Origin: Candidatus Norongarragalina meridionalis
GTDB lineage: Archaea > Micrarchaeota > Micrarchaeia > Norongarragalinales > Norongarragalinaceae
Assembly: GCA_902384935.1 (NCBI GenBank)
Contig: CABMDO010000012.1
Span: 1-64,000, forward strand
Reading direction: 5' to 3'
Length of the DNA: 64,000 nucleotides
The translations under genes and the position numbers were made by a program. Below, one piece after another: positions 2,612 through 62,393 of this stretch. Each line of letters opens with the position of its first letter. The first letter of the stretch is position 1. Below the pieces are notes generated by a model, which was given only the letters and a program-made list of their open reading frames with translations, did no database searches and was not told the origin of the DNA.

Positions 2612-2752
2612 GCCTAGCTACGCAGGTTAAAGACGCAATTTGTCCTTGTGCTGGTTCAGAAAGAAGTATCAATCCATCAGCTTACCATCGCTCGTACCGT
2701 GGCGGCTCGTCCTCCTCAAGCAGCCGCTTCCTCTCCTTCTGCTTATGCCCCG

Positions 2753-3787
2753 CTATGGAAACGGACTAGGCGAGGGCGACGGACTGGGCAACGGAGATGC
2801 GCTTGGAGTCGGCGATGGAGAGGGACTCGGAACGGGCAGAATAACGCTGAATACCTCTTTCCATTCGCCCTGATTATTGCAGTAATCCTCTGCCTGAACG
2901 CCGAAGGAACAGTTTGCGCCGGCCGGAGAAAGTCCACTGAATGTGAAGTAGTTTGAAACTGCTAAGCTGTAAATTTGATTGTTTCCAGCGCATTGGTATC
3001 GTGTCCTGTACCACATTCCGCTTGGGTTCGGGCTGGGGTCTACCGCCGGCGCCCACATAAGGAAAACATAATCTTGTCCTATGTTGCTCTCGAGAATATT
3101 CCCCACGACTCCCGGCGGAGTCATGTCAACTCTGGCAATGTTCGAGTCGGGAGCTTCAAAATAACCAGAATCTCCATAATAGCAGCGTATGTTCCACAAA
3201 TAATTTGCCTCTGTAGAGAACGAGTAAGTGATGTGGTTTTCCTGGCCGTTCAGGATTTCCGAGGTGTTCCATTTGGTAACAGCCATGCTGCCCGTTTCGT
3301 TTGTAATCAATGAGCAGTTCCTAACCGTTATCCCATTGAAATAAGGAATGAACGAAAACACCTTGAACAAAGATGCGCACTCTCCGTATCCGAGTAGTGA
3401 AAGAGTGGGTTGAGCTGTGGGAGATGGGCTAATTATCGGACTAGGCGAAGGCGATGGAGACGGAATTACCGTTGGCGTAGGCGTTGGGGATGGCGACGGA
3501 CTCGATGAGGACGAAGGCGTCGGGGAAGGATTGGGTGAAGAAACTGGTAGTGGCGAGGGACTTGGTGACGAAGCGACGGATGGAGCAACAGATGCGGCGG
3601 GACTGGGAGATGCTAACGGCGCCGTTGTTGACTTGACTGTTGGTTGTACGCTAATCGTGGCTTGAAGCGAAGGTCCCGCGTCCACGGACGGAATGTCCGA
3701 AGATTCCACCACGGCTCCGGTTTTCTCGATACAACCAAAGAGCGCTAACGATAAAACGATTGTGAGAATCGCGAACTTGTTTTTCAT
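2753..3787 (-). CDS. secreted lipoprotein-type surface protein with Pro/Ser/Thr linkers
   Basis: 344 aa. N-terminus MKNKFAILTIVLSLALFGC (signal plus Cys lipobox-like). Long PSPSPSP/PTPTP linkers at both ends. Cys-containing globular core (YRTRYQCAGNN...). Confidence 0.6.
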   Translation of the reverse strand: MKNKFAILTIVLSLALFGCIEKTGAVVESSDIPSVDAGPSLQATISVQPTVKSTTAPLASPSPAASVAPSVASSPSPSPLPVSSPNPSPTPSSSSSPSPSPTPTPTVIPSPSPSPSPIISPSPTAQPTLSLLGYGECASLFKVFSFIPYFNGITVRNCSLITNETGSMAVTKWNTSEILNGQENHITYSFSTEANYLWNIRCYYGDSGYFEAPDSNIARVDMTPPGVVGNILESNIGQDYVFLMWAPAVDPSPNPSGMWYRTRYQCAGNNQIYSLAVSNYFTFSGLSPAGANCSFGVQAEDYCNNQGEWKEVFSVILPVPSPSPSPTPSASPLPSPSPSPSPFP

Positions 3788-3800
3788 TCAAATCACCGTT

Positions 3801-4358
3801 TCAATGCCTGCTTCTCGTCTTCGCAACCGTCGCGACTGGACGCGAAACCTTGTCTTTCCAAAGCGATCCCGTTAAAATCGTGTTGTTGTAAAGTATTCCC
3901 GCAGGGAACGACTGACGATAGTCACCGTATGCGTTCTGGTACGCAATGTAATGATATGCGACCCAGAGGCCGTCCATCAACCCGGTGTAGTCGCCCAAGT
4001 CCGTGAGGGTACCTGGATCCCAGTACTTGTTGCAATAATCTCCCAGCGTCATGTGGCCATAGCAGAAATCGCCAGGTTGCCACGGTCCGCAGCTTGGTCC
4101 CTTGAGGAGCTGGACGTTAATTCGGTGCAGAAGTATGAACTCCGTATAGAACTTGACGGTTTTGACGCAATAAATGCCGTTGTGAACTATGACCGCAGAG
4201 CCGCCTGCGTTAGGGATGAGATCGCTGATGGCGCAGGAATTGAAGGACATGTTTGTGGCGCTTCCCATGTTGTACGTTGCGAAGCACGGAACCGTAGTCA
4301 ACGCCGCAACACCCGCCGCAACGAACGCCAAACCAAGCAAAACAAAGCTAAATTTCAT
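3801..4358 (-). CDS. secreted Cys-rich protein
   Basis: Start taken at the internal Met MKFSFVLLGLAFVAAGVAALTT (signal peptide). The longer ORF-track N-terminus is Arg-rich junk. 6+ Cys and Tyr/Gly/Asp-rich C-terminal half. Confidence 0.5.
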   Translation of the reverse strand: MKFSFVLLGLAFVAAGVAALTTVPCFATYNMGSATNMSFNSCAISDLIPNAGGSAVIVHNGIYCVKTVKFYTEFILLHRINVQLLKGPSCGPWQPGDFCYGHMTLGDYCNKYWDPGTLTDLGDYTGLMDGLWVAYHYIAYQNAYGDYRQSFPAGILYNNTILTGSLWKDKVSRPVATVAKTRSRH

Positions 4359-4436
4359 CGAATCATCCCCAGATATTCGGGAGACTTCGGCGTTTAAATG
4401 TTGTCTGTGCGGGCGTAGTTTGGGTAGCGAGCGCAC

Positions 4437-4799
4437 CTAGGCGCCGCCCTTCCAGTGCGGCGGTTCTTCCTCCTCAAGAAGCGCCTTCCTCTCCTTCTCC
4501 TTCCGCTTCTTCCACGCCAGGTATCCTGCGACTGCGAGGACGCCAAACACCGCCGCGCCAAGGGTTATGATTTTGCCGTTCTCGCTTCGCGCGTAGGCGC
4601 CCTTCCAGACGCACATGCAGTAGTCGGGCGATTCTTTGTCAAGAACAAGCTCCATGGAACCGCATTCCTCCTGAATCTTCGGGCAGTAAAGCGAGCAGCT
4701 GGTTTCGTTGACTAAGGCGAACTCGTTCGGCGACGGAGGGCATGTCGCCGCGGCTGCGAACGAGGCGAAAAGCAGGAACGCGAAAACGCCGGCCTTCAT
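4437..4799 (-). CDS. small secreted, C-terminally membrane-anchored Cys protein
   Basis: 120 aa. Signal MKAGVFAFLLFASFAAAATC, 6 Cys, a TM (AAVFGVLAVAGYLAW), and a KKRKEKERK...EEEEPPHWKGGA tail. ATGA overlap with the upstream gene. Confidence 0.5.
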   Translation of the reverse strand: MKAGVFAFLLFASFAAAATCPPSPNEFALVNETSCSLYCPKIQEECGSMELVLDKESPDYCMCVWKGAYARSENGKIITLGAAVFGVLAVAGYLAWKKRKEKERKALLEEEEPPHWKGGA

Positions 4800-4800
4800 T

Positions 4801-5223
4801 TCATTCCCCGACGTCCTTTCTTACGGCCCTGCTGCTCGCTTCGCCGCCGAGCATTTTGGCGCCTTTTGCCCTCAGAGCATCACCGAGTTTGGCGAGTATT
4901 TTCCTGCCGTGCTCGTTCTTGGAAACGAGCGTGAAGTAAACGGGTCTGAACGAGTCGGATTCCCTGAATCCTGGCACGAAGAAGCTCATCGTTTCGATGT
5001 GGTTCTCGATTTCGAAGTGTTCCTCCAGAATCCTGTTGATTTTTGAGATCTCGTTAAGCATTCTTATTGTCTGGGCGGCGATGCGATGCCGGGGATCCGA
5101 CGTGTCCTTCGGAACGGGAAAATACATGTGGATGCCGGGGTTTTCGCCGCCAAATTCCACGAAGTGATGCAGCCCCCTCCCGATTATTTCCTTCGCGGCG
5201 GCTTCGTGGGCGTTCTCTCGCAT
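4801..5223 (-). CDS. hypothetical protein, paralog A of 6167..6640
   Basis: Aligns with the 6167..6640 product (RGLHHFVEFGG..MYFP vs RGLDHFVVEGG..LYFP; LAKLGDALRAKGAKML vs LGRLSKALEKAGVRKM). Start set at the Met where the alignment begins. Confidence 0.5.
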   Translation of the reverse strand: MRENAHEAAAKEIIGRGLHHFVEFGGENPGIHMYFPVPKDTSDPRHRIAAQTIRMLNEISKINRILEEHFEIENHIETMSFFVPGFRESDSFRPVYFTLVSKNEHGRKILAKLGDALRAKGAKMLGGEASSRAVRKDVGE

Positions 5224-5370
5224 AAGCAGACGTAATAGGCGCCGCCATATATTTGTTTTTCTAGGGATCGGGAGAGATAATATAAACAGCCCGCGGTTGC
5301 CCGTTCCGGAGCCGAGCAAACGCGTGGAAGCAATCGCAAGAAGAACGCCGAGGCGGTTTAAAAATATGCG

Positions 5371-5772
5371 TCAGTCGCGCGATTCAATCGTTATCCCGCC
5401 TTCCAGGAAGCAGATTCGGTGCTCGTCGAAGATTCCCTTCCTGCCGAGTATTACCCTGTCCAGTTTGTGCTTCGGAAGCAGGACTTCCACCTCGCAGATA
5501 ACCGGTTTTCCAACAACGTCCAGATTTACCGCGGCGGTGTAGCCGCTGATGCACTCGTCCCCGCATATTCCCGTGGAGTTCTTGGGCTCGCCGCCGAGCC
5601 GTATGCCCAGCATTTCGACAAGTTCGTACGGGAATATCGAGTTGTCCGCGCCGGAGTCGAGCAGCCCTTCGAGCTGGATTTGCCGTCCGTCCCTTCCTTC
5701 CGCCTTGAAGGCTATTACGGGGCGTTTGGTTCCATCCTCGACCCTGTACGGGAAAAAAACTTTAGCCAACAC
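5371..5772 (-). CDS. retropepsin-like aspartic protease (clan AA)
   Basis: Catalytic motif LLDSGADNSIFP with the GRKG/ILGR flap-like region. ~130-aa single domain. Probable GTG/TTG start, since the upstream part of the ORF is Arg/Gln junk. Confidence 0.55.
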   Translation of the reverse strand: MLAKVFFPYRVEDGTKRPVIAFKAEGRDGRQIQLEGLLDSGADNSIFPYELVEMLGIRLGGEPKNSTGICGDECISGYTAAVNLDVVGKPVICEVEVLLPKHKLDRVILGRKGIFDEHRICFLEGGITIESRD

Positions 5773-5780
5773 AAAGCCCC

Positions 5781-6101
5781 TCAGTAAAGGCAGACGGTGT
5801 CCATTTTTCTCGGAATCTTGGTGAGGAGCACGCTTTCCATGCCGACCTTCCCGACAAGCGAGCTCAGCTTCGCGCCGCTTTCCAAAACGCCCATTTTGCT
5901 GCCTTTCATGCCGACGGCTATCCACTTGCCCTTGTTTTGTTCCAGAAATCGGGGGTTTTCCGAGAGCCACCTGCTGGCTTCCCTGTAGTCGAATTGCCCG
6001 TTTTTGCCGTCCTTCATAACTGGTTCAGCCGGCGTCCGTATATATACGCTGCGCTCCGATTCGTCGTTTGTTGCCATGACGCCTTCATCGCGCCGCCGCA
6101 T
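5781..6101 (-). CDS. small protein with antitoxin-like signature (DUF5678-like; start possibly at 6077)
   Basis: RWLSENPRFLEQNKGKWIAV resembles the WL.EN...L...Y.GKWVA signature of small archaeal DUF5678-type proteins. Lies immediately upstream of the retropepsin-like gene. Confidence 0.4.
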   Translation of the reverse strand: MRRRDEGVMATNDESERSVYIRTPAEPVMKDGKNGQFDYREASRWLSENPRFLEQNKGKWIAVGMKGSKMGVLESGAKLSSLVGKVGMESVLLTKIPRKMDTVCLY

Positions 6102-6166
6102 TTAAGCCCGCCTAGACGCCTTCCTTCCAGTGCGGCGGTTCCTCTATGGAGCGAAAAAGCCGCGCT

Positions 6167-6640
6167 TCATCTATTTCCGCCCTTCGCCTTCCTCTTCGGC
6201 AATCCCTCGAGGAAGTCCTCGACTGCCCGCCGCCGCTCCTCGTCCCCGGCGCGCTTGATTTCCTCGTCGCGCGCTATCGCCCTGACGCCCTGCGTGGGGT
6301 TCATCTTCCGCACGCCGGCTTTCTCCAGCGCCTTGCTAAGCCGTCCGAGCAGTTCGCTTCCTCTCGGCGTAGCCGCGCTCAGCACCCCGTAAACCGGATG
6401 TTCGTCCTCCTTGTAGCCGAAGCGCACGATTCCCGCGTCGACGTGGTTGTCCGCCTCGAAGAAGCGGTCCAGCATCTCCTTGGCTTCGATTGTCATGGCG
6501 CGCGCCCGCGCCTCCTGGTCGCCGACGAGCGCGGGGAAATAGAGCTGGAGCGTGCCGCCTTCCACGACGAAGTGGTCCAAGCCGCGTTCCACGAGACGTT
6601 TGGCGACGCTTTCCATGAGAAACGTAATAAACTTCCGCAT
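6167..6640 (-). CDS. hypothetical protein, paralog B of 4801..5223
   Basis: See paralog A. The C-terminus KRKAKGGNR plus an out-of-frame tail (..EEPPHWKEGV) looks like a fused remnant of a 4437-type gene. Confidence 0.5.
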   Translation of the reverse strand: MRKFITFLMESVAKRLVERGLDHFVVEGGTLQLYFPALVGDQEARARAMTIEAKEMLDRFFEADNHVDAGIVRFGYKEDEHPVYGVLSAATPRGSELLGRLSKALEKAGVRKMNPTQGVRAIARDEEIKRAGDEERRRAVEDFLEGLPKRKAKGGNR

Positions 6641-6653
6641 ATATCTGCTTTTC

Positions 6654-7508
6654 ATGAAGATGACCGCCATCGGAAGGATACGTGACATCCCGAAATGGGC
6701 TCACCGCGGTGGTTTCGATCGTTTGTCCCCTGCCGAAAGACGGGAAGTTGTGGACGGCTACCGCATCGCGGTCGAGACGTTCGGCAGGCCGCGTTCCAAA
6801 GAGGAGGCGGCGGCGCAGGTCCGTGACCTGCTCAGCGCAACAGTGTTCCACTCCGTCTCTAAAAAACTCGTTATTTCGCCCTCGATTCCGAGGAAAAAGA
6901 CGCCGGATTTCCGCCGCAGGCTGTCCAAGGCGGTTTTCTCGCCTCGCGGCAAATTCGGTCCCGGCGGGACCGCATCGTCGAGCGGGCGAATACGGCTTTA
7001 TGATTTTACCGCGCCCACCGCCGCGCACGAGGGGGCGCACATCATCCTTCGCAACTATCTGGGCGAGCACGAGTTCCGGCCGCTTGCAACGGCAATCGAC
7101 GAGCTCGTGAGCTACCAACGGGACGAATTTTTCTCCTACCTTCCCTACGAGCTTTATTTGAAGAACAGCGTCGTCAGAAATCCCAGCAAATACGCAATAC
7201 AGCATTCGTCGGAAACCGGCAAAAAAAGAAAAGCGTACGCCGTCGGCAGGGGGATAGCGCTCGACGCCATTGAAATTCTGGAAGAACTGGGCGAGAACGG
7301 CAGGTACGCGCCCTACAATCTGGCGTACAAGTACGTCGGTTATCTGGCGAAGGGGCAGTCGCCGGCGCAGGCGCGGATCAGCGTGTTCTGGGATTTCGTA
7401 AAAGCGTTTCCCGACTCGCCGAAGGTTCGCGAGTACGTGCTGCCCGAAGTCGAACGAAGCAGCAAACTGCTCGCTGCGGTGGACCGCGAGCTGAAAAGGA
7501 AGCACTAG
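6654..7508 (+). CDS. hypothetical protein with an HEXXH zinc-peptidase-like motif
   Basis: Start at MKMTAIGRIRD, preceded by cgtaataaac/catatatc TATA-like elements. Motif AAHEGAHIILRNYLGEHEF. The opposite-strand 389-aa ORF is an Arg-rich artefact. Confidence 0.45.
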   Translation: MKMTAIGRIRDIPKWAHRGGFDRLSPAERREVVDGYRIAVETFGRPRSKEEAAAQVRDLLSATVFHSVSKKLVISPSIPRKKTPDFRRRLSKAVFSPRGKFGPGGTASSSGRIRLYDFTAPTAAHEGAHIILRNYLGEHEFRPLATAIDELVSYQRDEFFSYLPYELYLKNSVVRNPSKYAIQHSSETGKKRKAYAVGRGIALDAIEILEELGENGRYAPYNLAYKYVGYLAKGQSPAQARISVFWDFVKAFPDSPKVREYVLPEVERSSKLLAAVDRELKRKH

Positions 7509-10893: not shown

Positions 10894-11394
10894 TTGATGA
10901 AGGGTGCGGTAAAGGAAACCGCGCAGTTCCTGGCGCTCTTCCTTTTCGTTGCAATACCCGTATATTTCGTGCTGGGATTTTTCGCCGCATCCTTTTCGGA
11001 AATAGCGGCATATTCCTCGCAAGTAATGCTGAACGCGGCAGGAGTGCGCACGTCCATTACTCTCGAAAACGGCGTCGCACATGTCATTTCTCCGTCTTTC
11101 GACGCCGAAATCGGCGATTTGTGCTGGGGGCGAGTGGAAATAGCCGTGCTTGCGGGAATAGTGATGGCAAGTTGGGACAGAACCGTGCGGCGAAGAATCG
11201 AGGGCATTATTCTCGGAATCGCCGTGCTTCTGGTGCTTAATCCCGTCAGAATCGCCGTTTCTCTCGCCGTCTACGACCCGCAGAACCCGCAGGCGTCTGC
11301 GCTGTTCCACGACGTTTTGTTCAGGGCTACGCTGGTAATCGTTTTGGTAGCCTACTACGCAGTATGGTATTACTGGCTGTCGAAGCGCCGTTAA
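10894..11394 (+). CDS. 4-TM membrane protein, possible exosortase/archaeosortase-family core
   Basis: 166 aa. Cys-Arg-Asn candidates in DAEIGDLCWGRVEIAVLAG and ...LVLNPVRIAV are reminiscent of the exosortase/archaeosortase triad. Immediately follows the FlaJ-like gene with a TTG start. Lacks the GGADVK motif of A24 prepilin peptidases. Confidence 0.35.
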   Translation: MMKGAVKETAQFLALFLFVAIPVYFVLGFFAASFSEIAAYSSQVMLNAAGVRTSITLENGVAHVISPSFDAEIGDLCWGRVEIAVLAGIVMASWDRTVRRRIEGIILGIAVLLVLNPVRIAVSLAVYDPQNPQASALFHDVLFRATLVIVLVAYYAVWYYWLSKRR

Positions 11395-27242: not shown

Positions 27243-27842
27243 ATGGCGGATCCGAAGCTGAAGTTGCTGACCGACAAGGACAGCGTGCTGTTGCTGGTCG
27301 ATTACCAGCCCGCGATGTTCAAAGGCGTGGAGTCGGGAAACAGGACTAAAATCCGGAATTGCGTCATTGCCGCGGCGAAAGCCGCGAAGATACTCGGCGT
27401 CCCCGTCGTGCTGACCACAATCGGACCGAAACTTAACGGCGATTGCATCAAGGAAGTCACCGAACTGTTTCCGGGGCAGGAAGTCTATGCGCGCACGATG
27501 CCGAGCTTCGATGCGTTCGAAGATGCGCGCGTTTTGGAAGCGGTGAAAAAAACCGGGCGCAAGCGCGTCGTAATCTCGGGATTGTGGACGAGCATGTGCT
27601 TCGCCTACACCGCGATTCACGGAATTCGCGAGGGATTCGAGGTTTACGGGCTTATCGACGCCGCGGGAGACGCCTCCAAGGACGCGCACAAATACGGGAT
27701 AAAACGCATGCTCCAGGTCGGAGTCGTGCCCATAACGCTGATTTCACTCGTATCCGAGTGGATGCACGATTGGGGAAACCCCAAGGCGGGCGAGCTCATC
27801 AAGGAAGTCTACTCGAAGTACGAAGCGATGCTGGGTATGTAA
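27243..27842 (+). CDS. isochorismatase-family cysteine hydrolase
   Basis: MADPKLKLLTDKDSVLLLVDYQPAMF...VLTT...CFAYT pattern (D-K-C triad positions) of isochorismatase/CSHase. Confidence 0.65.
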   Translation: MADPKLKLLTDKDSVLLLVDYQPAMFKGVESGNRTKIRNCVIAAAKAAKILGVPVVLTTIGPKLNGDCIKEVTELFPGQEVYARTMPSFDAFEDARVLEAVKKTGRKRVVISGLWTSMCFAYTAIHGIREGFEVYGLIDAAGDASKDAHKYGIKRMLQVGVVPITLISLVSEWMHDWGNPKAGELIKEVYSKYEAMLGM

Positions 27843-28341
27843 CGCGCGTTCCGTGCGTTTCGGCGAACGGCGTCATTCCGTGCGGCTTGGCGTTTCCTTT
27901 CCCTATTATGTCCAATACGGGAATGCCGCGTGCCAGCAGCGCGTCCGCAATCAGCGAGCGGTGGCAGCGCCACGGCACCGCCTCTGCGCACATTATCGCG
28001 GTAGTGCGCTTACGCGACATCTCAACAAGAGTTTTCAGTCCCGCTTCGAATCCGGGCGTCTGCATGTAATCCGCGTATCCTCGGAAGGACGCGTTGCGCC
28101 ATCCCGCGTTCTTCGAATCCGCCTCTGGTTTGCGCAGTCCGCCGAGCGCGGGGATATGCGCGTATGAAACGCCGTATTTTTCAAGCGACTTCGGAAGCGT
28201 TTCCCTGTTGAACTGCGGGACATGCCGGGAACGCGGGACGGTGCGCACGTCCGCTATTTGCACGACGCCGTTCTCCTTCAGGAGCGCGGCGAACTCCGCG
28301 AGCGTGCGCGTGGAATGCCCGATTGTAAAAATACGTTTCAT
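27799..28341 (-). CDS. DUF488 family protein
   Basis: MKRIFTIGHSTRTL...MCAEAVPWRCHRSLIADAL is the DUF488 signature. Confidence 0.6.
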   Translation of the reverse strand: MKRIFTIGHSTRTLAEFAALLKENGVVQIADVRTVPRSRHVPQFNRETLPKSLEKYGVSYAHIPALGGLRKPEADSKNAGWRNASFRGYADYMQTPGFEAGLKTLVEMSRKRTTAIMCAEAVPWRCHRSLIADALLARGIPVLDIIGKGNAKPHGMTPFAETHGTRVTYPASLRTSSRLP

Positions 28342-28749: not shown

Positions 28750-28853
28750 GCAGGGGTGGCTGAGTTTGGCCAAAAGCGGGGGACTTAAGAGGCGGGAACG
28801 CCTGCGAAATCCCCTCCCTTAGGGGTTCGGGAGTTCAAATCTCTCCCCCTGCA
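28750..28853 (+). tRNA. tRNA-Leu (anticodon UAA) with a ~19-nt intron 3' of the anticodon
   Basis: Acceptor gcagggg/cccctgc, D stem gct/agc, anticodon stem gggga...tcccc with loop cUUAAga interrupted by aggcgggaacgcctgcgaa. Long variable arm (tcccttaggggttc). T arm gggag-ttcaaat-ctctc. Confidence 0.7.
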
Positions 28854-28904: not shown

Positions 28905-30524
28905 ATGGACGCCGTAAGCGGGAATCTCGTCGACGTGCGCGGGGGGTGCGTTTATCCGGCAACCGTCGAAATCGAGGCTGGGCGAATAGCGCGCATACGG
29001 CGCGAGCACGGGAAATTCGACAATTACCTCCTCCCTGGCTTCATCGACGCCCACATCCACATAGAGAGTTCCATGCTCACCCCCTCGGAGTTCGCGAGGA
29101 TAGCGACTGTGCATGGCACGGTTGCCACTGTTTCGGATCCGCACGAGATAGCCAACGTGCTCGGCGAGAAGGGCGTCGAGTTCATGATAAGCGATGGAAA
29201 GCGGACGAACTTCAAGTTTTACTTCGGCGCGCCCTCGTGCGTTCCGGCGACGACGTTCGAGACCAACGGCGCGACGCTCGGCGCGAAGGAGGTTACATCG
29301 CTCCTGCGCAAGAAGGAGATACTGTATCTCAGCGAGGTTATGAACTACCCCGGGGTAATCGCCCGCGATTCCGAGGTGATGGCGAAAATCACCGCGGCGA
29401 AAACCCTGCGCAAGAGGGTTGACGGTCATGCGCCCGGTGTGAGGGGCGCGGAACTGAAAAAATACGCGGCTGCGGGAATAACGACGGATCACGAGTCGTT
29501 CGCCTACGATGAGGCGCTGGATAAGTTGGGGAACGGGATGAAAATCCAGATACGTGAGGGAAGCGCGGCGAAGAATTTCGAGGCGCTGTATCCCCTGATT
29601 GAAAAATACCCGAAAATGTGCATGTTCTGCTCAGACGACCGGCATCCCGACGACCTGCTGGAAGGGCACATCAACCTGCTCGTGAAACGCGCGGTTGCGA
29701 AGGGCGTCGGTTTGTTCAAGATTCTCAGGTGCGCGTGCGTCAACCCCGTTGAGCATTACGGTCTGGATGTCGGGCTCCTTCGCGAGGGCGATTCCGCGGA
29801 CTTCATAGTGGTCGACAACCTGCGCGACTTCAACGTTCTTAGGACGTATGTGCGCGGGCAGATAGTCGCCGAGCGCGGGAAGCCCCTTTTGAGGCGCGTT
29901 AAGTCGTCGAAGCCTAACAAATTCCGCGCGCGGAAGAAGTCGAAATCCGAGCTCGCCGTGCACAATACGCTGAACGTGATGGCGGTAACTGACGGCCAAC
30001 TGGTGGACAAGGCGATGGTTGTGTCCATCAGGGAGCTCGTCAGGCACGAGATAAAGATAGATCCGAAGACGGACGTCCTGAAAATCGTAGTGGTAAACCG
30101 CTACGCGGATTCGAGGCCCGCGGTGGCGTTTGCGAAGAACTTCGGATTGAAAAAAGGAGCGATAGCCTCTTCGGTGGCGCACGACTCGCACAACATAATT
30201 GCAGTTGGTGTGAACGACGAACTCATCTGCAAGGCGATAAACTGCCTGATACGGCACAGGGGAGGGATATGCGCGGTTGACGAGCGTTCCGAGCACGTCC
30301 TCCCGCTGCCGATAGCCGGCGTGATGTCGGACGGCGATTTCGCCTCAGTTGCCGAAAAATACTCTGAGCTCGACGGAATAGCAAAGTCCTACGGCTCGAA
30401 ATTGCGCGCGCCCTTCATGACGCTCTCGTTCATGGCGCTGCCCGTGATCCCGCAGCTGAAGCTGACGGACAAGGGACTGTTTGACGTCACCAATTTCAGG
30501 TTCGTCAACCTGTTCAACATGTAG
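28905..30524 (+). CDS. ade: adenine deaminase
   Basis: 539 aa. Amidohydrolase metal site GFIDAHIHIESS...SDPHEIANV, full Ade architecture. TAG stop at 30522-30524. Confidence 0.75.
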   Translation: MDAVSGNLVDVRGGCVYPATVEIEAGRIARIRREHGKFDNYLLPGFIDAHIHIESSMLTPSEFARIATVHGTVATVSDPHEIANVLGEKGVEFMISDGKRTNFKFYFGAPSCVPATTFETNGATLGAKEVTSLLRKKEILYLSEVMNYPGVIARDSEVMAKITAAKTLRKRVDGHAPGVRGAELKKYAAAGITTDHESFAYDEALDKLGNGMKIQIREGSAAKNFEALYPLIEKYPKMCMFCSDDRHPDDLLEGHINLLVKRAVAKGVGLFKILRCACVNPVEHYGLDVGLLREGDSADFIVVDNLRDFNVLRTYVRGQIVAERGKPLLRRVKSSKPNKFRARKKSKSELAVHNTLNVMAVTDGQLVDKAMVVSIRELVRHEIKIDPKTDVLKIVVVNRYADSRPAVAFAKNFGLKKGAIASSVAHDSHNIIAVGVNDELICKAINCLIRHRGGICAVDERSEHVLPLPIAGVMSDGDFASVAEKYSELDGIAKSYGSKLRAPFMTLSFMALPVIPQLKLTDKGLFDVTNFRFVNLFNM

Positions 30525-30578
30525 CGCTACCGTTTCTGCGTCGCGTCCTCCTTCATTACCATCTTCACTATCAGGTAG
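30524..30578 (+). repeat. direct repeat 1 (55 bp), a duplicate of the mscL 3' end
   Basis: gcgctaccgtttctgcgtcgcgtcCtccttcattaccatcttcactatcaggtag is identical apart from 1 mismatch to 31689..31743. Encodes (minus strand) ..YLIVKMVMKEDATQKR*. Confidence 0.85.
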
Positions 30579-31688
30579 GCCTGCATAAAACTTCTTTTTA
30601 GCCCGACGGGCAGGATTGGAACGGCCCCGTCTCTTCAGTCGGATACGAGTAGTCGGTATAACTGTCATAGGGCCCGAGGCCGATCAGCCAGAGCGGGCAG
30701 AACAAGCCGCTGAGGCCATTGCCAGTGAAGCATCCGAGGTCGCAGGAACGGTGGCACAGCCCGCCAATAATCGGAATAGTCAACTCGCCATTTTCCGCGC
30801 AGGCGTCGTAGCAGGCATCGTGCGTCCTGCAGCCGCCGTTGCTTCCGCACTGCTGCACGGCGTATGTGCATTGGTAGAAGCAGCCTTGGCCGTCGTTTAC
30901 GCATTGGGTTTTCTTGGGCAGCTGCTTGCATGTCCATGGGCAGTCCGCGCCGCACGCTCCCCTGCATTCGGACCCGCTGGCGATAGTGGGGTTGCGAGGC
31001 TGGGTTCCGCTGACTGCCTGCGGGCACGGCGGACGAACATATGCGCATGTTGGAGTTGGGCTCGGGCTGACTTCAGGCGGTTCAGGAGGAGGTGCGCGCG
31101 AGGCTTCGGGAATCATCACCGGCGAGGCTTTGGGCATGGGTGTCGATGTTGGAGCGGGTATTTTTGTCGCTGTCGGAGCGGGCATTTCTGTCGGCGTCGG
31201 AGAGGAACCCGGGCATCCGTTGGCGTCGATTCTTGTTCCGCTCAGTGAGGCTGAGCCTTTACAGCATTTGTCTTGGTCGTAGTAGTCCCAGGTGTAGCTG
31301 CCCGTGAAAGAGGAGCAGTCGGACGAGAAGACCAGGTCGAAGGCGGAAAGTGTGGCCGTGCCGGTGCCGTCAGTGACGGTCCTGCCGGGCATGCTGAGAG
31401 TGTTGCCCAGGAACGTACCCCTCGCGGGGCCGTCGCCCCAGTCGCTCACGTCCGCAATCTGCATGTCGTGCTGTATGATGACCTCGCGGACATCCGTCGC
31501 GATGCCGGTTCCGCAATCGGTTTCATCGTCGCTGACGGTGACGCTCCAATGGGTTATGCCGACATAAGTCCCAAAAGTAAATGTGGATTGCGCGGTGACC
31601 ATTTGCGGCAAGAAAAGGATGAAAAGCAGGACCAGTGAGCAGACAAAAACCGTTTTCATTTCGTTCCCCATCACGATATCGCCTCTCC
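30579..31688 (-). mobile_element. single-gene cassette inserted at the mscL 3' end, flanked by 55-bp direct repeats (no recombinase)
   Basis: 1.1 kb between DR1 and DR2 carries only ORF 30598..31674. Sits between the convergent ade and mscL genes, whose stops would otherwise be 3 nt apart. Confidence 0.5.
30598..31674 (-). CDS. secreted Cys-rich protein with Pro/Thr linker (cassette cargo)
   Basis: Signal MMGNEMKTVFVCSLVLLFILFLPQMVTAQS. Linker PTPTEMPAPTATKIPAPTSTPMP. ~24 Cys in the C-terminal half (CGADCPWTCKQ...CHRSCDLGC). Confidence 0.5.
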   Translation of the reverse strand: MMGNEMKTVFVCSLVLLFILFLPQMVTAQSTFTFGTYVGITHWSVTVSDDETDCGTGIATDVREVIIQHDMQIADVSDWGDGPARGTFLGNTLSMPGRTVTDGTGTATLSAFDLVFSSDCSSFTGSYTWDYYDQDKCCKGSASLSGTRIDANGCPGSSPTPTEMPAPTATKIPAPTSTPMPKASPVMIPEASRAPPPEPPEVSPSPTPTCAYVRPPCPQAVSGTQPRNPTIASGSECRGACGADCPWTCKQLPKKTQCVNDGQGCFYQCTYAVQQCGSNGGCRTHDACYDACAENGELTIPIIGGLCHRSCDLGCFTGNGLSGLFCPLWLIGLGPYDSYTDYSYPTEETGPFQSCPSG

Positions 31689-31743
31689 GCGCTACCGTTT
31701 CTGCGTCGCGTCTTCCTTCATTACCATCTTCACTATCAGGTAG
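31689..31743 (+). repeat. direct repeat 2 (55 bp), the authentic mscL 3' end
   Basis: See DR1. Contiguous with the mscL coding sequence. Confidence 0.85.
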
Positions 31744-31997
31744 ACCACGAGCGCGATGATGAGGAAGTCGATTATCGCGCCGACGAAGTCGCCGACCATG
31801 AATTTCACGGGCCCGATGTCGAGCGTCGACACTCGCCAGTCCCCGCCCGGAACGAGCGCGCCTACAATCGGCATAACGATGTCGTTGACGAGCGCGGTGA
31901 CGAGTTTAGTCGCAGCCGCGCCGATGATGAACGCAACGACGAGCCCCAGCACCTGGTATTTCTTGAGGAATTCCTTGAACTCCGATACGAACGTCAT
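31692..31997 (-). CDS. mscL: large-conductance mechanosensitive channel
   Basis: MTFVSEFKEFLKKYQVLGLVVAFIIGAAATKLVTALVNDIVMP...GDFVGAIIDFLIIALVVYLIVK is a classic MscL. GTG-extended in the ORF track. Confidence 0.75.
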   Translation of the reverse strand: MTFVSEFKEFLKKYQVLGLVVAFIIGAAATKLVTALVNDIVMPIVGALVPGGDWRVSTLDIGPVKFMVGDFVGAIIDFLIIALVVYLIVKMVMKEDATQKR

Positions 31998-32254
31998 TGC
32001 GAACCGCTCTCCGCCGTCATCTGCTCGGCAACCATCTGCGCGTCGAGGTAGCACGTTCCCGAATAGTTCTTTCCGTCAGGGCCGTTGTACCAGCATTCGT
32101 AAGGCGTCTTTCCCTCCATGCTTTTCGTCAGATACGTTCCGCCCGCCGCCTCGCCGAAGCCGTGAGTAGCGTAATAGAAACCGAGCGCGCCGCCGACGAG
32201 AATGCAGGCGAGCGCCAAGCCGATCACGAAAAGTTCGTCGTGCTTTCCCTTCAT
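31994..32254 (-). CDS. small membrane/secreted protein
   Basis: 86 aa with one TM (LFVIGLALACILVGGALGFYY) and a Cys-containing tail. ATGA overlap with mscL. Confidence 0.4.
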   Translation of the reverse strand: MKGKHDELFVIGLALACILVGGALGFYYATHGFGEAAGGTYLTKSMEGKTPYECWYNGPDGKNYSGTCYLDAQMVAEQMTAESGSQ

Positions 32255-58000: not shown

Positions 58001-60866
58001 CCTCGATGGCGACGCGCGCGTCGGTTATTGCCGAACCCGTGCTCGAGAATACGGTTGCGGTAAGGTCCGCCTTTGTTCCCGACTCCATGGTTGCGGGCTT
58101 TACCGCAACAACCATCGAACCCGTTCCTTCGACTATTACGTAGCGTTCGTCCGAAAGCAGCGTTCTTCCCGCATCGGTAAGCTCGAATTGCATGCGCGCG
58201 AAATCGCTCGGCTCCACGGCGCGGACGTCCGTCGCGACGCTGCCCTCGCCTGCGTCGTCGAGCGCAACGCCTGCGCTCCACTCGTCGGAGTTGTTCGCCT
58301 GTATGAACTGCAGCGCTCCGCCAAGCGAGCGTATGCGCACCGTGGGCACGGAAACGTCGCCGAATACCCGCACAGCCACGTTCGCGGTGAACGAGTGCCC
58401 GAGCCCGACGGTCAAACCGTTCGCGCCCTTCTCGGTTGTGGTGTTAAGTGTGATTATCATGCACGCGTTCTCCGTGCACAGGCTTCCGCCCTCGTTGACG
58501 TCGTATTTCGCGTCCGTGGTTTTCGCGCGGCATCCCTCCTTTGCCGCGGTGCTCTCCGCGTATCCCAACACCGTATCCTCGGGCGTGCGGTACCATACGT
58601 CCGCCTTCTTCGCGTAGGCGCGGTAATGGAACGATACTTTGCTTTTTCGCGTAGCGTTCGGGCTTACAAACACCTTCACCGCGAGAGTTTTCACGCCGAA
58701 CGATGAATATTCCTGCTGCACCCATTTTACGTGCGAGTCGCTCGCGTTGTCCGCCACTTCGTCGGTGCACGCGCTTTCCGCGTCGTACGTTCCGCCCCAC
58801 GTAATTTCCGCATCCTGCGGCTTGTCGAAATACGATATGTACGCCGCATCCGCGTCAAGAGTCGTGTTGTCGCCTATGCGGAGGTATGCTCCGCCGCGTT
58901 CCACGCCGCCGGGTATGTTCAAGGTAAGCAGAGCGAGATAATAGCGTCCGCGGTCGAGCGAACCCACCGCCTCGCCGCCATTGAGCGGTTCGAGCCTGAA
59001 ATCAACTACCTGCAGCTGCTTCGCCTGCGACGTCGGAAGCATGCGCAGTTCGTAATAAACGCTTCCTTCGTTGTCAACGGAAATCTGTTCGCTTTCGTAA
59101 TCCGCGAACCCTCCGGCGGTTGCCTTGAGCACTATCTTGCGGTCCGAGCGCACCTTCAGCGAGCACGTGCTGTTCAGCGGGCTCGTTCCCGTGGCGCACG
59201 TAGCGCTTGCGGAAGTCGCGCCTTCCTCGAACGCCTTCACCGTTGCGGTCAGCAGATTGCCGGTTGTCATGTCCGTCGCGTTGACGAATATCCTTCCGTA
59301 CGGCGCGGGCAGCTTCAGTTCCAGCGGCGATTCACGCGCTTCGAGCGTTATCTTCGTTATGTCGCTGTATCCGTGCACCGAGCCTGCTGTGGCATACGCC
59401 TTGATTTCCTCGAGCGGCAATCCCGCGAATGAAACGAATCCGTCGTATCCGGTTTCCTGCGAAGGCACGCCGAGCGAGAACCCGTCGCCGGTTACCAGTT
59501 CAACCGAAGCGAGCTCGACGCGCTTTCCGTCGGCGTCAAGAACGACTATGTCGAGCGTACCGCTGTTCCCCGCAACAAGCGCCTCGAGCGCTATTGTCTT
59601 GGAGTCTCCCGCCACCACGTTCTTCTCTATATGCGGAAGATAGCCTTCCGCGTAAATCGTAAGATAGCCCGCGCTTTTCGACGACACTTCCAGCACGCAC
59701 TCGCCGTGCGTGTCGGTGTTGCACGACGCGAGTTCGCGCAGAGGCGCGTCCGCCATCAGGAAGCGCACGTACGCGCCCTCGATCGACTGCCCCGCGTCCC
59801 CGGTAACCTTGACGTTGACGTTGCGCAAATCCGCCGCGGTTTTGCGCTGGAGCCTTGCCTTGAATTCCACGTAAGTTTCCGACGCCACGCCCTGCACGTC
59901 GTTCGCCGCTGCGCCGTTGTATCCCGCGTACGCATCGGACGGAGGTTCGACAACTACGTAGACGCGCGTGCCCGCTTCGGCGGCGGAATCGAAGAAAACT
60001 GTTCCCTGCGAATCAGTCACTCCCTCGGTTATGACGTTCGAGGAATCGGCGTCGTGCACTATTACGTGCGCGCCCTCGAGCTGGATTCCTCCGTCGTCTT
60101 CGACTGTAACGAGAATGCTGCCCTTGGACGGCGCGCTTCCGCCTTCGTCCTTGGGTTTCGCGCCATCGGGTGAAAGCGCGAGCGAGCACTGCTTCTGAGA
60201 CGCGAAGCACGTAACGCGGTCCGAAACGAATCCGTCGCGCGAGACGCGTATGTTGAAGATGTCGGAAACCCCTGCGAACTCGATGAAAGCGCTGCCCGTT
60301 GCGTCGGTGGCGAGTTCCTTGACGTTGCCCGCGGTGTCGGTGTATACTACGGACGCGGCTTCAAGCGGCTGGCCGTCCGCGTTCGTAACCGCGAGGGCAA
60401 TCCTGTTCGCCTCGCTTGTCGCGGGTTCGAGAAGCGCGGTAAAGCTCTGCGCGCCCGTAACCAAAACCTCGTTGCCATAGTCGGCGTAACCCGCTTCCTT
60501 TATCTGCACGAGCGCCTTTTTCCCGACGGGCAACCCCGTGAATTTCGCAACCCCGTTTTTGTCGGTTTTCAGGTCGAACGACTTGTCGTCTACCGTCAGG
60601 TGCACAAGCGCGTCCTGAATCGGCTCGTCCCCGGACATTACCGTAACCGTAAGCGCGGTTTTAGGCGACGCAACGTCCTGGAGAACGAAAAAGGCGCCTG
60701 CGCCGAGCAGGGCGACGAGCAGGACGAACACGGGCAGCGAAGGGATTCCCTTGTCCTCGATGGGGGTTACGAACCAATCCACCGCGGGCACGCCTTTCGC
60801 CTGCAGCCAGTCCATGAGCGCGTAATAGCGCTCTTCGATAGAGACGTAAATTTCCTTGAGTGCCAT
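55017..60866 (-). CDS. giant (approx. 1950 aa) N-terminally anchored surface protein / putative adhesin
   Basis: Start at MALKEIYVSIEERYY.. followed by the TM LPVFVLLVALLGAGAFFVL. Many carboxypeptidase-regulatory/Ig-like-looking repeats (VTxxDGxPLEGAxV). Cys-rich module (CSSAACKECTEQQC...PSPSPSPSPSPNATCSAKRCDLCNESAC). First gene of the pilus cluster. Confidence 0.6.
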   Translation of the reverse strand: MALKEIYVSIEERYYALMDWLQAKGVPAVDWFVTPIEDKGIPSLPVFVLLVALLGAGAFFVLQDVASPKTALTVTVMSGDEPIQDALVHLTVDDKSFDLKTDKNGVAKFTGLPVGKKALVQIKEAGYADYGNEVLVTGAQSFTALLEPATSEANRIALAVTNADGQPLEAASVVYTDTAGNVKELATDATGSAFIEFAGVSDIFNIRVSRDGFVSDRVTCFASQKQCSLALSPDGAKPKDEGGSAPSKGSILVTVEDDGGIQLEGAHVIVHDADSSNVITEGVTDSQGTVFFDSAAEAGTRVYVVVEPPSDAYAGYNGAAANDVQGVASETYVEFKARLQRKTAADLRNVNVKVTGDAGQSIEGAYVRFLMADAPLRELASCNTDTHGECVLEVSSKSAGYLTIYAEGYLPHIEKNVVAGDSKTIALEALVAGNSGTLDIVVLDADGKRVELASVELVTGDGFSLGVPSQETGYDGFVSFAGLPLEEIKAYATAGSVHGYSDITKITLEARESPLELKLPAPYGRIFVNATDMTTGNLLTATVKAFEEGATSASATCATGTSPLNSTCSLKVRSDRKIVLKATAGGFADYESEQISVDNEGSVYYELRMLPTSQAKQLQVVDFRLEPLNGGEAVGSLDRGRYYLALLTLNIPGGVERGGAYLRIGDNTTLDADAAYISYFDKPQDAEITWGGTYDAESACTDEVADNASDSHVKWVQQEYSSFGVKTLAVKVFVSPNATRKSKVSFHYRAYAKKADVWYRTPEDTVLGYAESTAAKEGCRAKTTDAKYDVNEGGSLCTENACMIITLNTTTEKGANGLTVGLGHSFTANVAVRVFGDVSVPTVRIRSLGGALQFIQANNSDEWSAGVALDDAGEGSVATDVRAVEPSDFARMQFELTDAGRTLLSDERYVIVEGTGSMVVAVKPATMESGTKADLTATVFSSTGSAITDARVAIEEGTGEPFSGEANGDYAIQGDGTDGKGKEGKYTFKRLLPVSPGTFDVVASKQGYEDARATVRVSATDFLSYAPDISAISMTCDAKAVTIENSLKTDVTVSAAFSGTACVSLAGSRVTSSGDDRYTIVIPGGKSTQVVMTPIRSDQCYLVFTTTLESTGSTDSQTAWIKVECAALKKNTTTGNEKCSSAACKECTEQQCLNLNKTGGYCLPQYAKTADGKDAFLACAQPSPSPSPSPSPNATCSAKRCDLCNESACNVLQNNGSCYANYDVNTHVFTSCVSFRQDQCSPANFDLSNMLARRLGQYHAQQLFNPSTRSRYVAGSMEDQFVLVPGVGWTGNGPLPSSGEATIKINSLFPVAGVAFSIQNLLGADTQLLVNWDNNKNKCFVIRDIEHDFSRDLGLSALINKLQDAVTGTLVPANQYRSYLVLFNPKEGCAVYKPDENGQLRIEPLVDSVTLTLQSSGVLGSASRKIKISVESNDDETAARYAFMIVPMSGNVYRRGTDANNIKEPFLFVNNNPTLHMTVTGGGSSVTIDPKKAGMLALTKEQAKTVTVKTKEFTGAIGFDLSGRFENPKGTWMQGDVIGNLKTTEAPAPEAPAAPASTTETASGKITATGQLGGEGGGKPGAGESPADAEALECTGTNYCDQAKYDAASRALNDELNGLFAQQQMDTPKADTQGIVKGTADVFQKALNDAIADYMAQATTYQACLKLGKDPLKSMKESCSQQMTQPPGYMSSYSDSMYGSNYVPVSYSPTYNFGDVYGDAFRSAACNSQLLNYAFGASGTATQQQFWPSVKNSLTASMYPTTGAVNVKTPLYSNDLHVLVPMKLGGLTAKGKGGIHLVDFAYDPAAGGAGIMGGEEKAEIIDYIDGTPWDGVMVSGGFFGTAPTPQLSSVLVSIQGGGTSTNSPPISFPYVKSDGSVGFDLGTPNCFTANKYSELTKGVLQGCTITGSSADALHSCLVDEKKSMSTGGSAACEIKGDEKALEADNCVCQ

Positions 60867-61656
60867 AATAAAAACTTGCCCGCGTATATATAAAAACGTG
60901 CTTAAAATCGCCTTCGGCGAAGCCGCCGCGAGCCTCGGAAAAACGCTCATAGTTGCGGACCTTCACCTCGGCATCGAACTCGAACTTCGAGCCCGCGGCA
61001 TAAACGCGAGGCAGCAGTGGCATCCTTGCGCGGTTCGCATAAACAAGCTGCTGAAGAAAATGAAATGCGGCAGCCTCGTGATTCTGGGCGACGCCAAGCA
61101 CGACGTCTACGGCTGCGACATCGAAGAGCGCACGATGATGAGGCGTTTCCTCGACAGCCTCGACACCAAGGACGTGCGCATCATAAAAGGAAACCATGAT
61201 TCCCTGCTCGAAGGCGTCGCGCCCATTATTCCCGCTACGGGCATGCGCATCGAAGACGGGGGCGAGTCCTACGGTCTGTTCCACGGGCATGCGTGGCCCG
61301 CCAAGGACGTGCTCGCAGCCGACATTTTTCTCATGGCGCACCAGCATCCCATGTACGAATTCAAGGACAAAGCCGGCAGATGGAGCGAGAAATGCTGGAT
61401 TTCGGCCGAAACAAAAGCCAATAAGCGGTTCGGAGTAATGGGGAAGCGCAGGGTTGTCGTCTTTCCGGCATTCGGCATTCTTTCCGGAGGCATTCGCCTA
61501 AATGCCGAAAAAGGAATCGGCCCGTTCTTCGAAAATCCGCTCCTGCGCAAGGCGACGGCATTCTCGCTCGAAGGCGCGCCCCTGGGTGCACTAAGCGTTA
61601 GCCGCCCGAAACCTTATACTGTTCTTTATACTTCTTTTCCGGAGGATATTTTTTAA
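60856..61656 (+). CDS. calcineurin-like metallophosphoesterase
   Basis: ..LIVADLHLG...ILGDAKHDVYG...IIKGNHD...GHAWP... (metallophosphatase motifs I-V). The C-terminal 22 codons run into the cassette insertion. Confidence 0.65.
   Translation: MSAIIKTCPRIYKNVLKIAFGEAAASLGKTLIVADLHLGIELELRARGINARQQWHPCAVRINKLLKKMKCGSLVILGDAKHDVYGCDIEERTMMRRFLDSLDTKDVRIIKGNHDSLLEGVAPIIPATGMRIEDGGESYGLFHGHAWPAKDVLAADIFLMAHQHPMYEFKDKAGRWSEKCWISAETKANKRFGVMGKRRVVVFPAFGILSGGIRLNAEKGIGPFFENPLLRKATAFSLEGAPLGALSVSRPKPYTVLYTSFPEDIF
61531..61588 (+). repeat. direct repeat copy 1 (~56 bp) of the phosphoesterase 3' end
   Basis: aaaatccgctcctgcgcaaggcgacggcattctcgctcgaaggcgcgcccctgggt matches the copy at 62327..62382 with 4 mismatches. 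Coordinates +-3. Confidence 0.8.
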
Positions 61657-62326
61657 TTAGTTTAGAAAGATCCTTCGTTACAAATTCGTCCTTCCGTCCG
61701 AACGGCCATATGCTCCTCTTTTTTCTAATCCACCAGTCTCCGAATCCACCTACCGGAGCCTGCCCACCGCATACCAAAAAATGCCCTTTTTTCTTCAAAA
61801 TTTTATTTATTTTTGTGTAAAAACTATCTGTACCCAGCTCCGCTTCGCCGTATTGTGCGGCGCCGGAACGAGAAAGTATCAAATCATACTGTTTGTTCTT
61901 TTTCACTAGCGAATCTATGGTTCCTATATGCAGATAGTCCAAATGATTTTTTGCATTACCGTACCTTTGCGAAGGGATGTTTGTAAGCGTCAGCCCCTCA
62001 ACTTCCGCATTTATTCCTTCATCATGAAGCAGTTTACGCAGCTCTATTGCCGCAATTCCGGCACCGCAACCTAAATCCAGTATCCTTATTGGCTTGCCTT
62101 TCTGCCGACGCATTATGCCTCTTGCCAACTCCAAAAGATTTCCGAAATCATGCATGTAGCAGACGAGATCCCTTTTCGAATTGTATGAAGCGTATGCGAA
62201 CTGAACCGGCGACTCGCGATCCTCTTTCCTTCCTTTCCAAATTGTTGATGCTAGCTCTTTCCTGTATTTCTTCTCATTTTCCGACCGCCTTTCTACCATA
62301 TAGAAATAATAATGAGCCATAACTTT
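61589..62326 (-). mobile_element. low-GC single-gene cassette (methyltransferase) flanked by ~56-bp direct repeats
   Basis: ~740 bp, AT-rich, containing only ORF 61598..62320. Lies between the convergent phosphoesterase and TraB-like genes. No recombinase. Confidence 0.5.
61598..62320 (-). CDS. class I SAM-dependent methyltransferase (cassette cargo)
   Basis: Motif I ILDLGCGAGIAAIEL. 240 aa, low GC. Confidence 0.65.
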   Translation of the reverse strand: MAHYYFYMVERRSENEKKYRKELASTIWKGRKEDRESPVQFAYASYNSKRDLVCYMHDFGNLLELARGIMRRQKGKPIRILDLGCGAGIAAIELRKLLHDEGINAEVEGLTLTNIPSQRYGNAKNHLDYLHIGTIDSLVKKNKQYDLILSRSGAAQYGEAELGTDSFYTKINKILKKKGHFLVCGGQAPVGGFGDWWIRKKRSIWPFGRKDEFVTKDLSKLIKKYPPEKKYKEQYKVSGG

Positions 62327-62382
62327 AAAACCCGCTCCTGCGCAAGGCGACGGCTTTCTCGCTCGAAGGCGCGCCGCTGGGC
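62327..62382 (+). repeat. direct repeat copy 2 (~56 bp), the probable original phosphoesterase 3' end
   Basis: aaaacccgctcctgcgcaaggcgacggctttctcgctcgaaggcgcgccgctgggc continues in frame to ..SLKL plus TAG (62395-62397), overlapping the convergent TraB-like stop (cTAg). Confidence 0.8.
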
Positions 62383-62393
62383 TCGCTCAAGCT

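Follow-up and report, generated by a model that had tools for sequence, protein, structure and literature searches.

A probable single-gene insertion scar bracketed by a duplicated mscL gene end at the ade-mscL junction of Candidatus Norongarragalina meridionalis

Direct repeats of 40-100 bp that overlap the 3' end of a gene are a standard product of Campbell-type (single-crossover) integration, which is by far their commonest known source. Elements that integrate at gene 3' ends reportedly include the tycheposons of Prochlorococcus. Integron gene cassettes have been reported in Archaea as well, and among integrases that duplicate host sequence by staggered attack, Cas1-Cas2 duplicates the ~30-bp CRISPR repeat and casposons make 14-15-bp target duplications. 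[quoted passage not shown] Here we analyse a 64-kb stretch (the window) of the 74.8-kb contig CABMDO010000012.1 from LFW-144_1, the metagenome-assembled genome (MAG) of Candidatus Norongarragalina meridionalis, a member of the Micrarchaeota (DPANN) with a genome of 0.93 Mb and 57.5 % GC (PMC8561730). In this window a single gene for a secreted Cys-rich protein, which we call the cargo, lies between the convergent genes ade and mscL and is bracketed by two copies of the last ~55 nt of mscL. The predicted products of ade, mscL and the cargo are each 100 % identical to an NCBI protein recorded for this organism. The locus is a gene-insertion scar rather than a demonstrably mobile cassette, and it is a variant of known insertion scars, not a new class, unless a genome-wide survey reveals systematic long-duplication insertion.

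The duplicated mscL end and its cargo gene

The junction comprises the following features, in window coordinates.

28905-30524, + strand: ade (adenine deaminase), the left flank, convergent with mscL; Pfam Adenine_deam_C (E=1e-59) plus Amidohydro_1
30524-30581, - strand: repeat copy 1, an orphan mscL 3' end of 16 codons, stop and 3 nt; non-coding apart from a 19-codon open reading frame (ORF) with an ATG start
30582-30597, no strand: spacer of 16 nt after the cargo stop, T-rich on both strands (AAAACTTCTTTTT / AAAAAGAAGTTTT)
30598-31674, - strand: cargo gene, the sole convincing gene between the copies, for a secreted two-domain Cys-rich protein
31675-31688, - strand: cargo leader of 14 nt directly after copy 2, with a Shine-Dalgarno-like GGAGAGG
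31689-31746, - strand: repeat copy 2, the functional mscL 3' end plus 3 nt
31692-31997, - strand: mscL, 101 aa; Pfam MscL (E=5e-23), 100 % identical to P0016 of this species (database proteins are labelled P####, comparison loci L###)

The two copies form the strongest dispersed direct repeat in the window: self-blastn aligns 30524-30581 with 31689-31746 over 58 nt with two mismatches (96.6 %, E=2.8e-20), and under simple match/mismatch scoring the pair reaches 54, compared with a maximum of 17-20 in five codon-block shuffles. An earlier note on this DNA had described a 55-nt direct repeat with one mismatch, and repeat search, self-blastn and shuffles together confirm that the duplication is real. 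Its firm core is 55 nt long (30524-30578 and 31689-31743) and identical at 54 positions, the single mismatch at position 25 being GAG in place of GAA, both Glu in the mscL frame and so synonymous. The 3 nt beyond the core read GCC in one copy and ACC in the other, and their matches may be chance or microhomology. At this length the duplication exceeds any known transposon target duplication, as had been argued.

Sequence and Pfam match agree that copy 2 is the genuine mscL 3' end, containing 3 nt beyond the stop, the stop itself (31692-31694, CTA on the + strand) and the final 16 complete codons (YLIVKMVMKEDATQKR). The count of 17 codons first given needs correction, as only 16 are identical, codon 17 encoding Val in mscL and Ala in the orphan copy. 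Copy 1 does abut the ade stop, and in fact begins on it, its first base being the G of TAG (30522-30524); if the insert is taken out, the ade and mscL stop codons stand 2 nt apart. Tight or overlapping convergent ends are normal for this genome: the isochorismatase and DUF488 genes overlap, and a phosphoesterase stop described below (in copy B) overlaps that of a 209-aa gene. An in-frame ATG ahead of copy 1 (30524-30583, - strand) gives the 19-codon ORF (MQAYLIVKMVMKEDATQKR and a stop), which is probably fortuitous. An 18-nt inverted match (16/18) between 29527-29544, inside ade, and 31653-31670, in the first cargo codons (GNGMK and GNEMK on opposite strands), is probably due to chance.

Alignment of mscL tails reveals that copies 1 and 2 share bases absent from the tails of L086, L092 and L087, indicating that the duplication is recent and either originated within this lineage or was acquired from a conspecific. 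None of the relatives checked (L087, L092, L093, L096) has a duplicated mscL tail, and the T2SSE insertion beside mscL in L092 is likewise free of one. The closest mscL, that of L086 (92 % aa identity; 80.8 % nucleotide identity when the upstream 86-aa gene is included with mscL), overlaps its upstream gene by the same 4 nt as the start of mscL overlaps the 86-aa gene here (31994-32254), and is followed after 19 nt by a convergent DUF488 gene, with neither ade nor cargo. Because the genes found downstream of mscL vary among all relatives examined (DUF488, GATase_5, T2SSE ATPase, P-type ATPase, RadA), the slot at the mscL 3' end is variable. The window's own DUF488 gene (27799-28341) is inverted and lies 3.3 kb from mscL, whereas the L086 orthologue (577-825) is directly convergent with it, which indicates that the region has been rearranged; between the two genes in the window stand tRNA-Thr, L40e, an intron-containing tRNA and ade. 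This second tRNA (28750-28853, + strand), just upstream of ade, scores 44 bits in Rfam and was missed by ARAGORN.

The best matches of ade in the genome collection are all Bacteria (54-61 % identity), and judging from such sequence comparison ade looks horizontally acquired. A relative 69 % identical to it occurs in L096 (8001-12988), after RuBisCO and 3 kb from a convergent mscL on a low-GC contig, which suggests either an old ade-mscL linkage, older than the cargo, or co-transfer.

Exactly one gene lies between the copies, as the earlier note had it; the NCBI annotation starts it at the ATG at 31671 (357 aa, P0001). Depending on the boundaries taken it is 16-19 nt from copy 1 and 14-17 nt from copy 2. 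The predicted product opens with a signal peptide and an 8-stranded calycin-like beta-barrel, which a Pro/Thr linker connects to a Cys-rich C-terminal domain bearing the invariant motifs CRGACGxDCP, CRTHDxCYDxC and CHxxCDxGC. The AlphaFold model of the N-domain has a predicted local distance difference test score (pLDDT) of 80-90 and lipocalin/NHBA-like matches; that of the C-domain is of low confidence. The protein has no Pfam match, the C-domain none even at E<=10. C-domains of this type also terminate bacterial proteins that begin with eCIS_core (PF13699), for example P0010 and P0013, and this shared ending makes the cargo look like an effector- or toxin-like module. A phospholipase A2 reading of the C-domain (30598-31050), suggested by the likeness of CRTHDxCYDxC to that enzyme's active site, found no support, with no Pfam match and with PDB sequence matches confined to Pro/Thr low-complexity sequence. 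The cargo's G+C content at third codon positions (GC3), 0.71, is close to the genome's. Its homologues, 49-57 % identical, lie on other Micrarchaeota-like contigs beside Dus, DUF2666/TrkA or a cold-shock-like gene, and no flanking repeats surround those for which DNA is at hand (L081, L084, L085), so that the family does not travel as a repeat-flanked unit there.

The closest homologue, in L111, has a ~200-nt upstream region with its own TATA-like box. In the window the leader of 14 nt, all that separates the mscL stop from the cargo start, is too short for a promoter, which makes co-transcription with mscL the natural reading; no TATA-like box is visible in it by eye, and a sigma-70 scan, whose consensus leaves out archaeal promoters, found nothing. 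The GGAGAGG lies 7 nt before the GTG/ATG start. On these features the co-transcription suggested earlier is plausible. The T-rich spacer on the far side of the gene (30582-30597) may act as an oligo-T terminator shared by ade and the cargo.

Further repeat-bracketed genes in the window

The second-strongest repeat in the window pairs 61532-61611 with 62327-62406 (~80 nt, 86 % identical with gaps) and likewise brackets one gene.

61532-61611, + strand: copy A, the functional 3' end of a metallophosphoesterase gene (60856-61656, + strand)
61598-62320, - strand: S-adenosylmethionine (SAM)-dependent methyltransferase gene, the cargo of this second locus; Pfam Methyltransf_31 (E=1.5e-6)
62327-62406, + strand: copy B, an orphan phosphoesterase tail, overlapping at its end the stop codon of the convergent gene for 209 aa (62394-63023, - strand)

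The duplicated piece contains the last ~66 nt of the metallophosphoesterase gene on the + strand and the last 3 codons plus stop of the 209-aa gene on the - strand, and in copy A the other strand supplies the last 4 codons plus stop of the methyltransferase gene. The latter is compositionally foreign, with 43 % GC and a GC3 of 0.44 compared with 0.72-0.82 for housekeeping genes; the 209-aa gene is intermediate (0.59). In the syntenic relatives L100 (= GCA_002763345.1, co-generic) and L101-L105, at ~77 % nucleotide identity, the order is a giant secreted protein, the phosphoesterase, one unrelated gene of 282-312 aa and S26e, without the methyltransferase. Copies A and B both match the single tail of L100 (5808-5861; 88.9 %) and share a 6-nt insertion and several substitutions relative to it, indicating that this duplication is lineage-specific too. 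Within the first 57 nt all four differences between A and B fall at synonymous third positions; polarised with L100, three are on the functional copy and one on the orphan. This is weak evidence (p=0.04 by our own rough estimate) that the orphan tail was coding until recently, as recombination between strains would predict. The second locus is a clear, older case of the same architecture.

A third locus is ambiguous between an insertion scar and the remnant of a lost paralogue left by segmental duplication and decay.

2690-2757, - strand: orphan tail (KQKERKRLLEEDEPP...), lying 8 nt beyond the stop codon of a 344-aa gene and copying the tail at 4437-4502 of a 120-aa gene

The intact 120-aa gene (4437-4799) encodes a membrane protein whose tail reads KEKERKxLLEEEEPPHWK, and between the copies are two secreted-protein genes (3801-4436 and 2753-3787) of low GC3 (0.52-0.65). 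The region 2690-6688 holds three copies of this tail, with 172/173-aa paralogous genes upstream of two, including that of the remnant at 6105-6166, a collapsed paralogue of the 120-aa gene of which only the first 8 and last 10 codons are left. No convincing motif common to the repeats of the three loci was detected by eye. A little further left, six to seven 21-nt tandem units (2361-2507) lie inside a gene for a small coiled-coil/transmembrane protein (2276-2611). The window is rich in secreted Pro/Thr-linker proteins and T2SSF/FlaJ-like genes, and at 10894-11394 (+ strand) has an exosortase/archaeosortase-like gene (PF09721, E=3e-5).

Searching the same window for other such pairs, as had been proposed, therefore yielded one clear case (61532-62406) and one ambiguous case (2690-4502), which strengthens the idea of a recurrent process. 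Counting direct repeats of 40-150 nt with >=85 % identity and 0.3-6 kb apart, we found 4 pairs in the window and 3 in the 1.15 Mb of 112 comparison loci, a density ~24-fold higher measured on a baseline that is rough and not independent. One of these 3, in a Saccharibacteria MAG of the candidate phyla radiation (CPR) with a reduced genome (L012, 4660-5352), is a 41-nt direct repeat (95 %) around a single RibD_C gene beside ade. Borderline self-blastn pairs scoring 21-23 were discarded as noise by comparison with shuffles.

Origin of the duplication

The order gene body, tail, insert, tail, neighbour is that of a single-crossover product, and since such integration is also the commonest known source of repeats of this kind, we rank it first: the repeat would be the scar of Campbell-type integration into a formerly tight convergent ade-mscL junction, a tentative choice to which we give slightly less than even weight. 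The event would have been an insertion, in which the resident mscL tail recombined with a small DNA circle that held the cargo gene and its own copy of the final ~55 nt of mscL. One tail would then complete mscL and the orphan would still abut ade, leaving the 3' ends of both neighbours intact. Either homologous recombination by the host, using the 55 nt of identity, or a recombinase that acted in trans or has since been deleted might have made the crossover. The insert itself encodes nothing able to move it. The cargo would now be the last gene of a transcription unit comprising the 86-aa gene, mscL and the cargo, with its own Shine-Dalgarno site for translation. It could be deleted precisely by recombination between the two tails, in which case the cargo-free junction would read ...AACATGTAGCGCTACCG...CAGGTAGACCACGAGC and the circle junction ...GCCTCTCC-[tail]-GCCTGCATAAAA.

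This conclusion must be tempered by several observations that weigh against it. Pfam searches of 35 ORFs of the window, including the convincing ORFs within ~6 kb either side of the ade/mscL locus, found no integrase, transposase or recombinase domain, in accord with what the earlier note had claimed for the insert; the segment 30582-31688 holds only the secreted-protein gene, without a Pfam recombinase domain, and no recombinase gene. The mscL tail pattern is absent from IMG/VR viral contigs and occurs in JGI metagenomes only in ordinary mscL (one contig). Neither the cargo nor the methyltransferase of the second locus has relatives on viral contigs, and clusters at 90 % identity were all singletons. 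An exact empty ade-mscL site, which the earlier note had proposed looking for in related genomes, was not found in any relative, the comparison being one that leaves the mscL locus of the co-generic genome outside. The donor order, mscL then cargo, is missing from the five cargo-homologue contexts, a thin sampling, and the DNA examined amounts to 64 kb of one MAG. Moreover, we know of no documented source for a 1.17-kb one-gene circle with a host-specific tail, unless a conspecific already had the structure. A circle leaves the first origin of the duplication unexplained, and the gene at the second locus is moreover foreign. Of the integration proposed in the earlier note, then, what stands is a real, lineage-specific duplication around one gene without a recombinase; an exact empty site in relatives was not found, nor was a second copy, a circular form, a viral or plasmid copy, or a cognate recombinase for the insert.

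Other kinds of mobile unit were considered and rejected. For an integron gene cassette we find no attC-like fold (DNA folding of both copies and the 3' spacer gives z = -1.6 to +0.5, with 0.2 for copy 1) and no IntI or tyrosine recombinase in the window, and there is a single unit whose repeat is mscL coding sequence. A transposon, insertion sequence (IS), miniature inverted-repeat transposable element (MITE) or casposon would not fit a 55-nt duplication without a transposase or Cas1 (Pfam) and without terminal inverted repeats, the insert ends GCCTGCATAAAAC... and ...ATATCGCCTCTCC not being inverted on inspection. A diversity-generating retroelement fails because no reverse transcriptase occurs among the tested ORFs and the mismatch has the opposite polarity, A in the in-gene copy and G in the orphan (coding strand). 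A tRNA-targeted island carrying ade lacks the expected sign, as no duplicate of either tRNA 3' end was found. Tandem duplication of cargo and mscL followed by random loss is contradicted by the 4-nt overlap of mscL with the 86-aa gene: its conservation in L086 implies that the cargo never stood between these two genes.

Among the remaining explanations, homology-facilitated illegitimate recombination or unequal crossover between genomes differing at this slot is unlikely, though it comes first. One parent would have had mscL followed by the cargo and the other ade convergent with mscL, so that neither circle nor recombinase is needed: with incoming linear DNA held by homology at one end (for example at L40e/tRNA/ade, or at mscL), an illegitimate join at the other end, falling 55 nt within the mscL of one parent, would carry a fragment of that gene along. 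The same mechanism has been proposed at the Vibrio cholerae T6SS arrays and Rhs loci (PMC5361080). The mscL tail is a conserved anchor, with a 26-nt stretch identical in L086 and L092; the one mismatch at ade/mscL and the four differences at the second locus, three on the functional copy and one on the orphan, are synonymous; and ade looks like a horizontal acquisition. Against this, reported events of this type usually entail loss of recipient DNA, not its duplication, none of the relatives was found to have the cargo downstream of mscL, and the junction microhomology of 2-3 nt is at best possible. Both copies at the second locus, furthermore, hold the same convergent junction, for which one target duplication is simpler while a join between strains needs an extra earlier event.

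Next, and also unlikely even when its two versions are taken jointly, is the remnant of an integrative element that entered the mscL 3' end through a tyrosine or serine recombinase, with the repeats as attL and attR, and was reduced to one useful gene, or a mini-element mobilised in trans like cis-mobilisable elements or integrase-less tycheposon-like satellites. The direct repeats are att-sized and both overlap and reconstitute the target gene's 3' end, copy 2 completing mscL, as in integrative elements. The cargo product is secreted, toxin-like and accessory in nature. Gene gain and loss are both high in the lineage (PMC12892359), and the apparent ages of the three loci differ (98 %, ~86-95 % and 86 % repeat identity), which would fit a decay series. 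Set against these points are the lack of a recombinase in the window and of the mscL tail on viral contigs, repeats without a common motif, and the position of the cargo within 6-19 nt of both repeats at both clear loci, which would require very neat deletions. This explanation overlaps Campbell-type integration and differs from it only in the enzyme and in the original size of the element.

The puzzling origin of a circle with a species-specific tail keeps de novo duplication of a long target site during capture of foreign DNA, as well as inter-strain recombination, among the live rivals, doubtful as we consider it to be. Here the host's own sequence would be duplicated at the insertion, either because the break had nicks separated by 55-80 nt or through template switching (microhomology-mediated break-induced replication), the polymerase copying the tail, then the insert, then the tail again. 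In one step this would account for the host-specific character of both copies, and also for a foreign gene (GC3 0.44) inside native flanks at the second locus, the unequal duplication lengths (55, 80 and ~46 nt) and the absence of recombinase, terminal inverted repeats and common motif, all with no pre-existing circle bearing a host tail. It is weakened in that, to our knowledge, no prokaryotic pathway makes 45-80-bp target duplications around kilobase inserts; junction microhomology is minimal, and both insertions spared both neighbours, which calls for selection or targeting to gene ends. The data leave the choice among integration, inter-strain recombination and de novo duplication undecided.

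Decay of a second mscL paralogue, its body deleted or overwritten until only copy 1 was left, is very unlikely. The genome does keep collapsed remnants (6105-6166; perhaps 2690-2757), but at 54/55 identity the duplication would have to be very recent, with an unrelated gene exactly replacing the gene body straight afterwards, nothing of an mscL body lies between copy 1 and the cargo, and the second locus, where the duplicated piece spans the ends of two genes, would go unexplained. Least credible is an assembly artefact, a mis-join of strain variants in a MAG from a MEGAHIT co-assembly of four samples (k 27-127, 2x150-nt reads; PMC8561730), since k-mers up to 127 and 150-nt reads span the whole 58-nt repeat plus both flanks, the copies differ and were hence resolved as separate sequences, and those of the second locus have diverged with indels that no assembler would make.

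Gene gain and comparison with known systems

A comparative study argues that the metabolism of Norongarragalinales was largely built through continuous horizontal gene gain balanced by loss (PMC12892359). A text search of it turned up no reference to integrases, transposases or mobile genetic elements, and the route by which foreign genes enter these compact genomes is therefore not stated there. Because the architecture recurs in the window and the second locus holds a foreign gene, such a scar is a useful footprint of horizontal gene gain, a physical trace of an individual event in which one gene enters a convergent junction and a duplicated tail preserves the neighbours; the ade/mscL scar and the further ones may show how this lineage adds foreign genes. 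A broader proposal is speculative and we give it little weight: Norongarragalinales, and perhaps further lineages with reduced genomes, would add single genes at convergent gene ends by a recombinase-poor route that duplicates 45-80 bp of the target. If true, genes would be added via one-ORF mini-circles carrying a host gene tail, or by a break or replication reaction that makes very long target duplications, amounting to a cassette system without integron hallmarks that could explain foreign-gene uptake by DPANN archaea with few recognisable mobile elements. Should the scars be common in DPANN or CPR genomes, they would offer a sequence signature by which to date and count recent acquisitions and a handle on the mechanism of integration. 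The near-identical 55-nt repeats also predict precise cargo loss by recombination, and the population may be polymorphic for the cargo gene.

Integrative elements of gene 3' ends (archaeal SSV/pNOB8-type and bacterial tyrosine-recombinase elements), which bring along a replacement for the gene end they enter, and their integrase-less derivatives (cis-mobilisable elements, degenerate islands) resemble the ade/mscL locus in their 40-100-bp flanking direct repeats, of which one completes the target gene and the other is an orphan, and in their accessory cargo. They differ from it in that here there is no integrase, a single 1.1-kb gene is packed within 14-19 nt of both repeats, the target is a protein-coding gene end at a convergent junction and not a tRNA, the host is a DPANN archaeon, and a second copy or free form was not found. 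The T6SS effector-immunity arrays of Vibrio cholerae and the orphan modules of Rhs and contact-dependent inhibition (CDI) systems likewise have a variable slot beside a conserved gene, a partial duplicate left behind, toxin- or effector-like cargo and no dedicated recombinase (PMC5361080). Their conserved anchor, however, is upstream and the old module is displaced downstream (PMC5361080), whereas what is duplicated here is the extreme 3' tail, and at the second locus both convergent ends.

Integron cassettes share with our insert a promoter-less single ORF downstream of a transcribed gene, tight packing and the lack of a self-encoded recombinase, but the window's locus has no attC hairpin, IntI, attI or array, and its repeat is host coding sequence rather than a cassette-borne site. 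Staggered-attack integrases (Cas1-Cas2, casposons), finally, are alike in duplicating host sequence over a greater length than classical transposon target duplications; here, by contrast, there is no Cas1 or casposase, there are no terminal inverted repeats, and the duplications extend to 55-80 bp.

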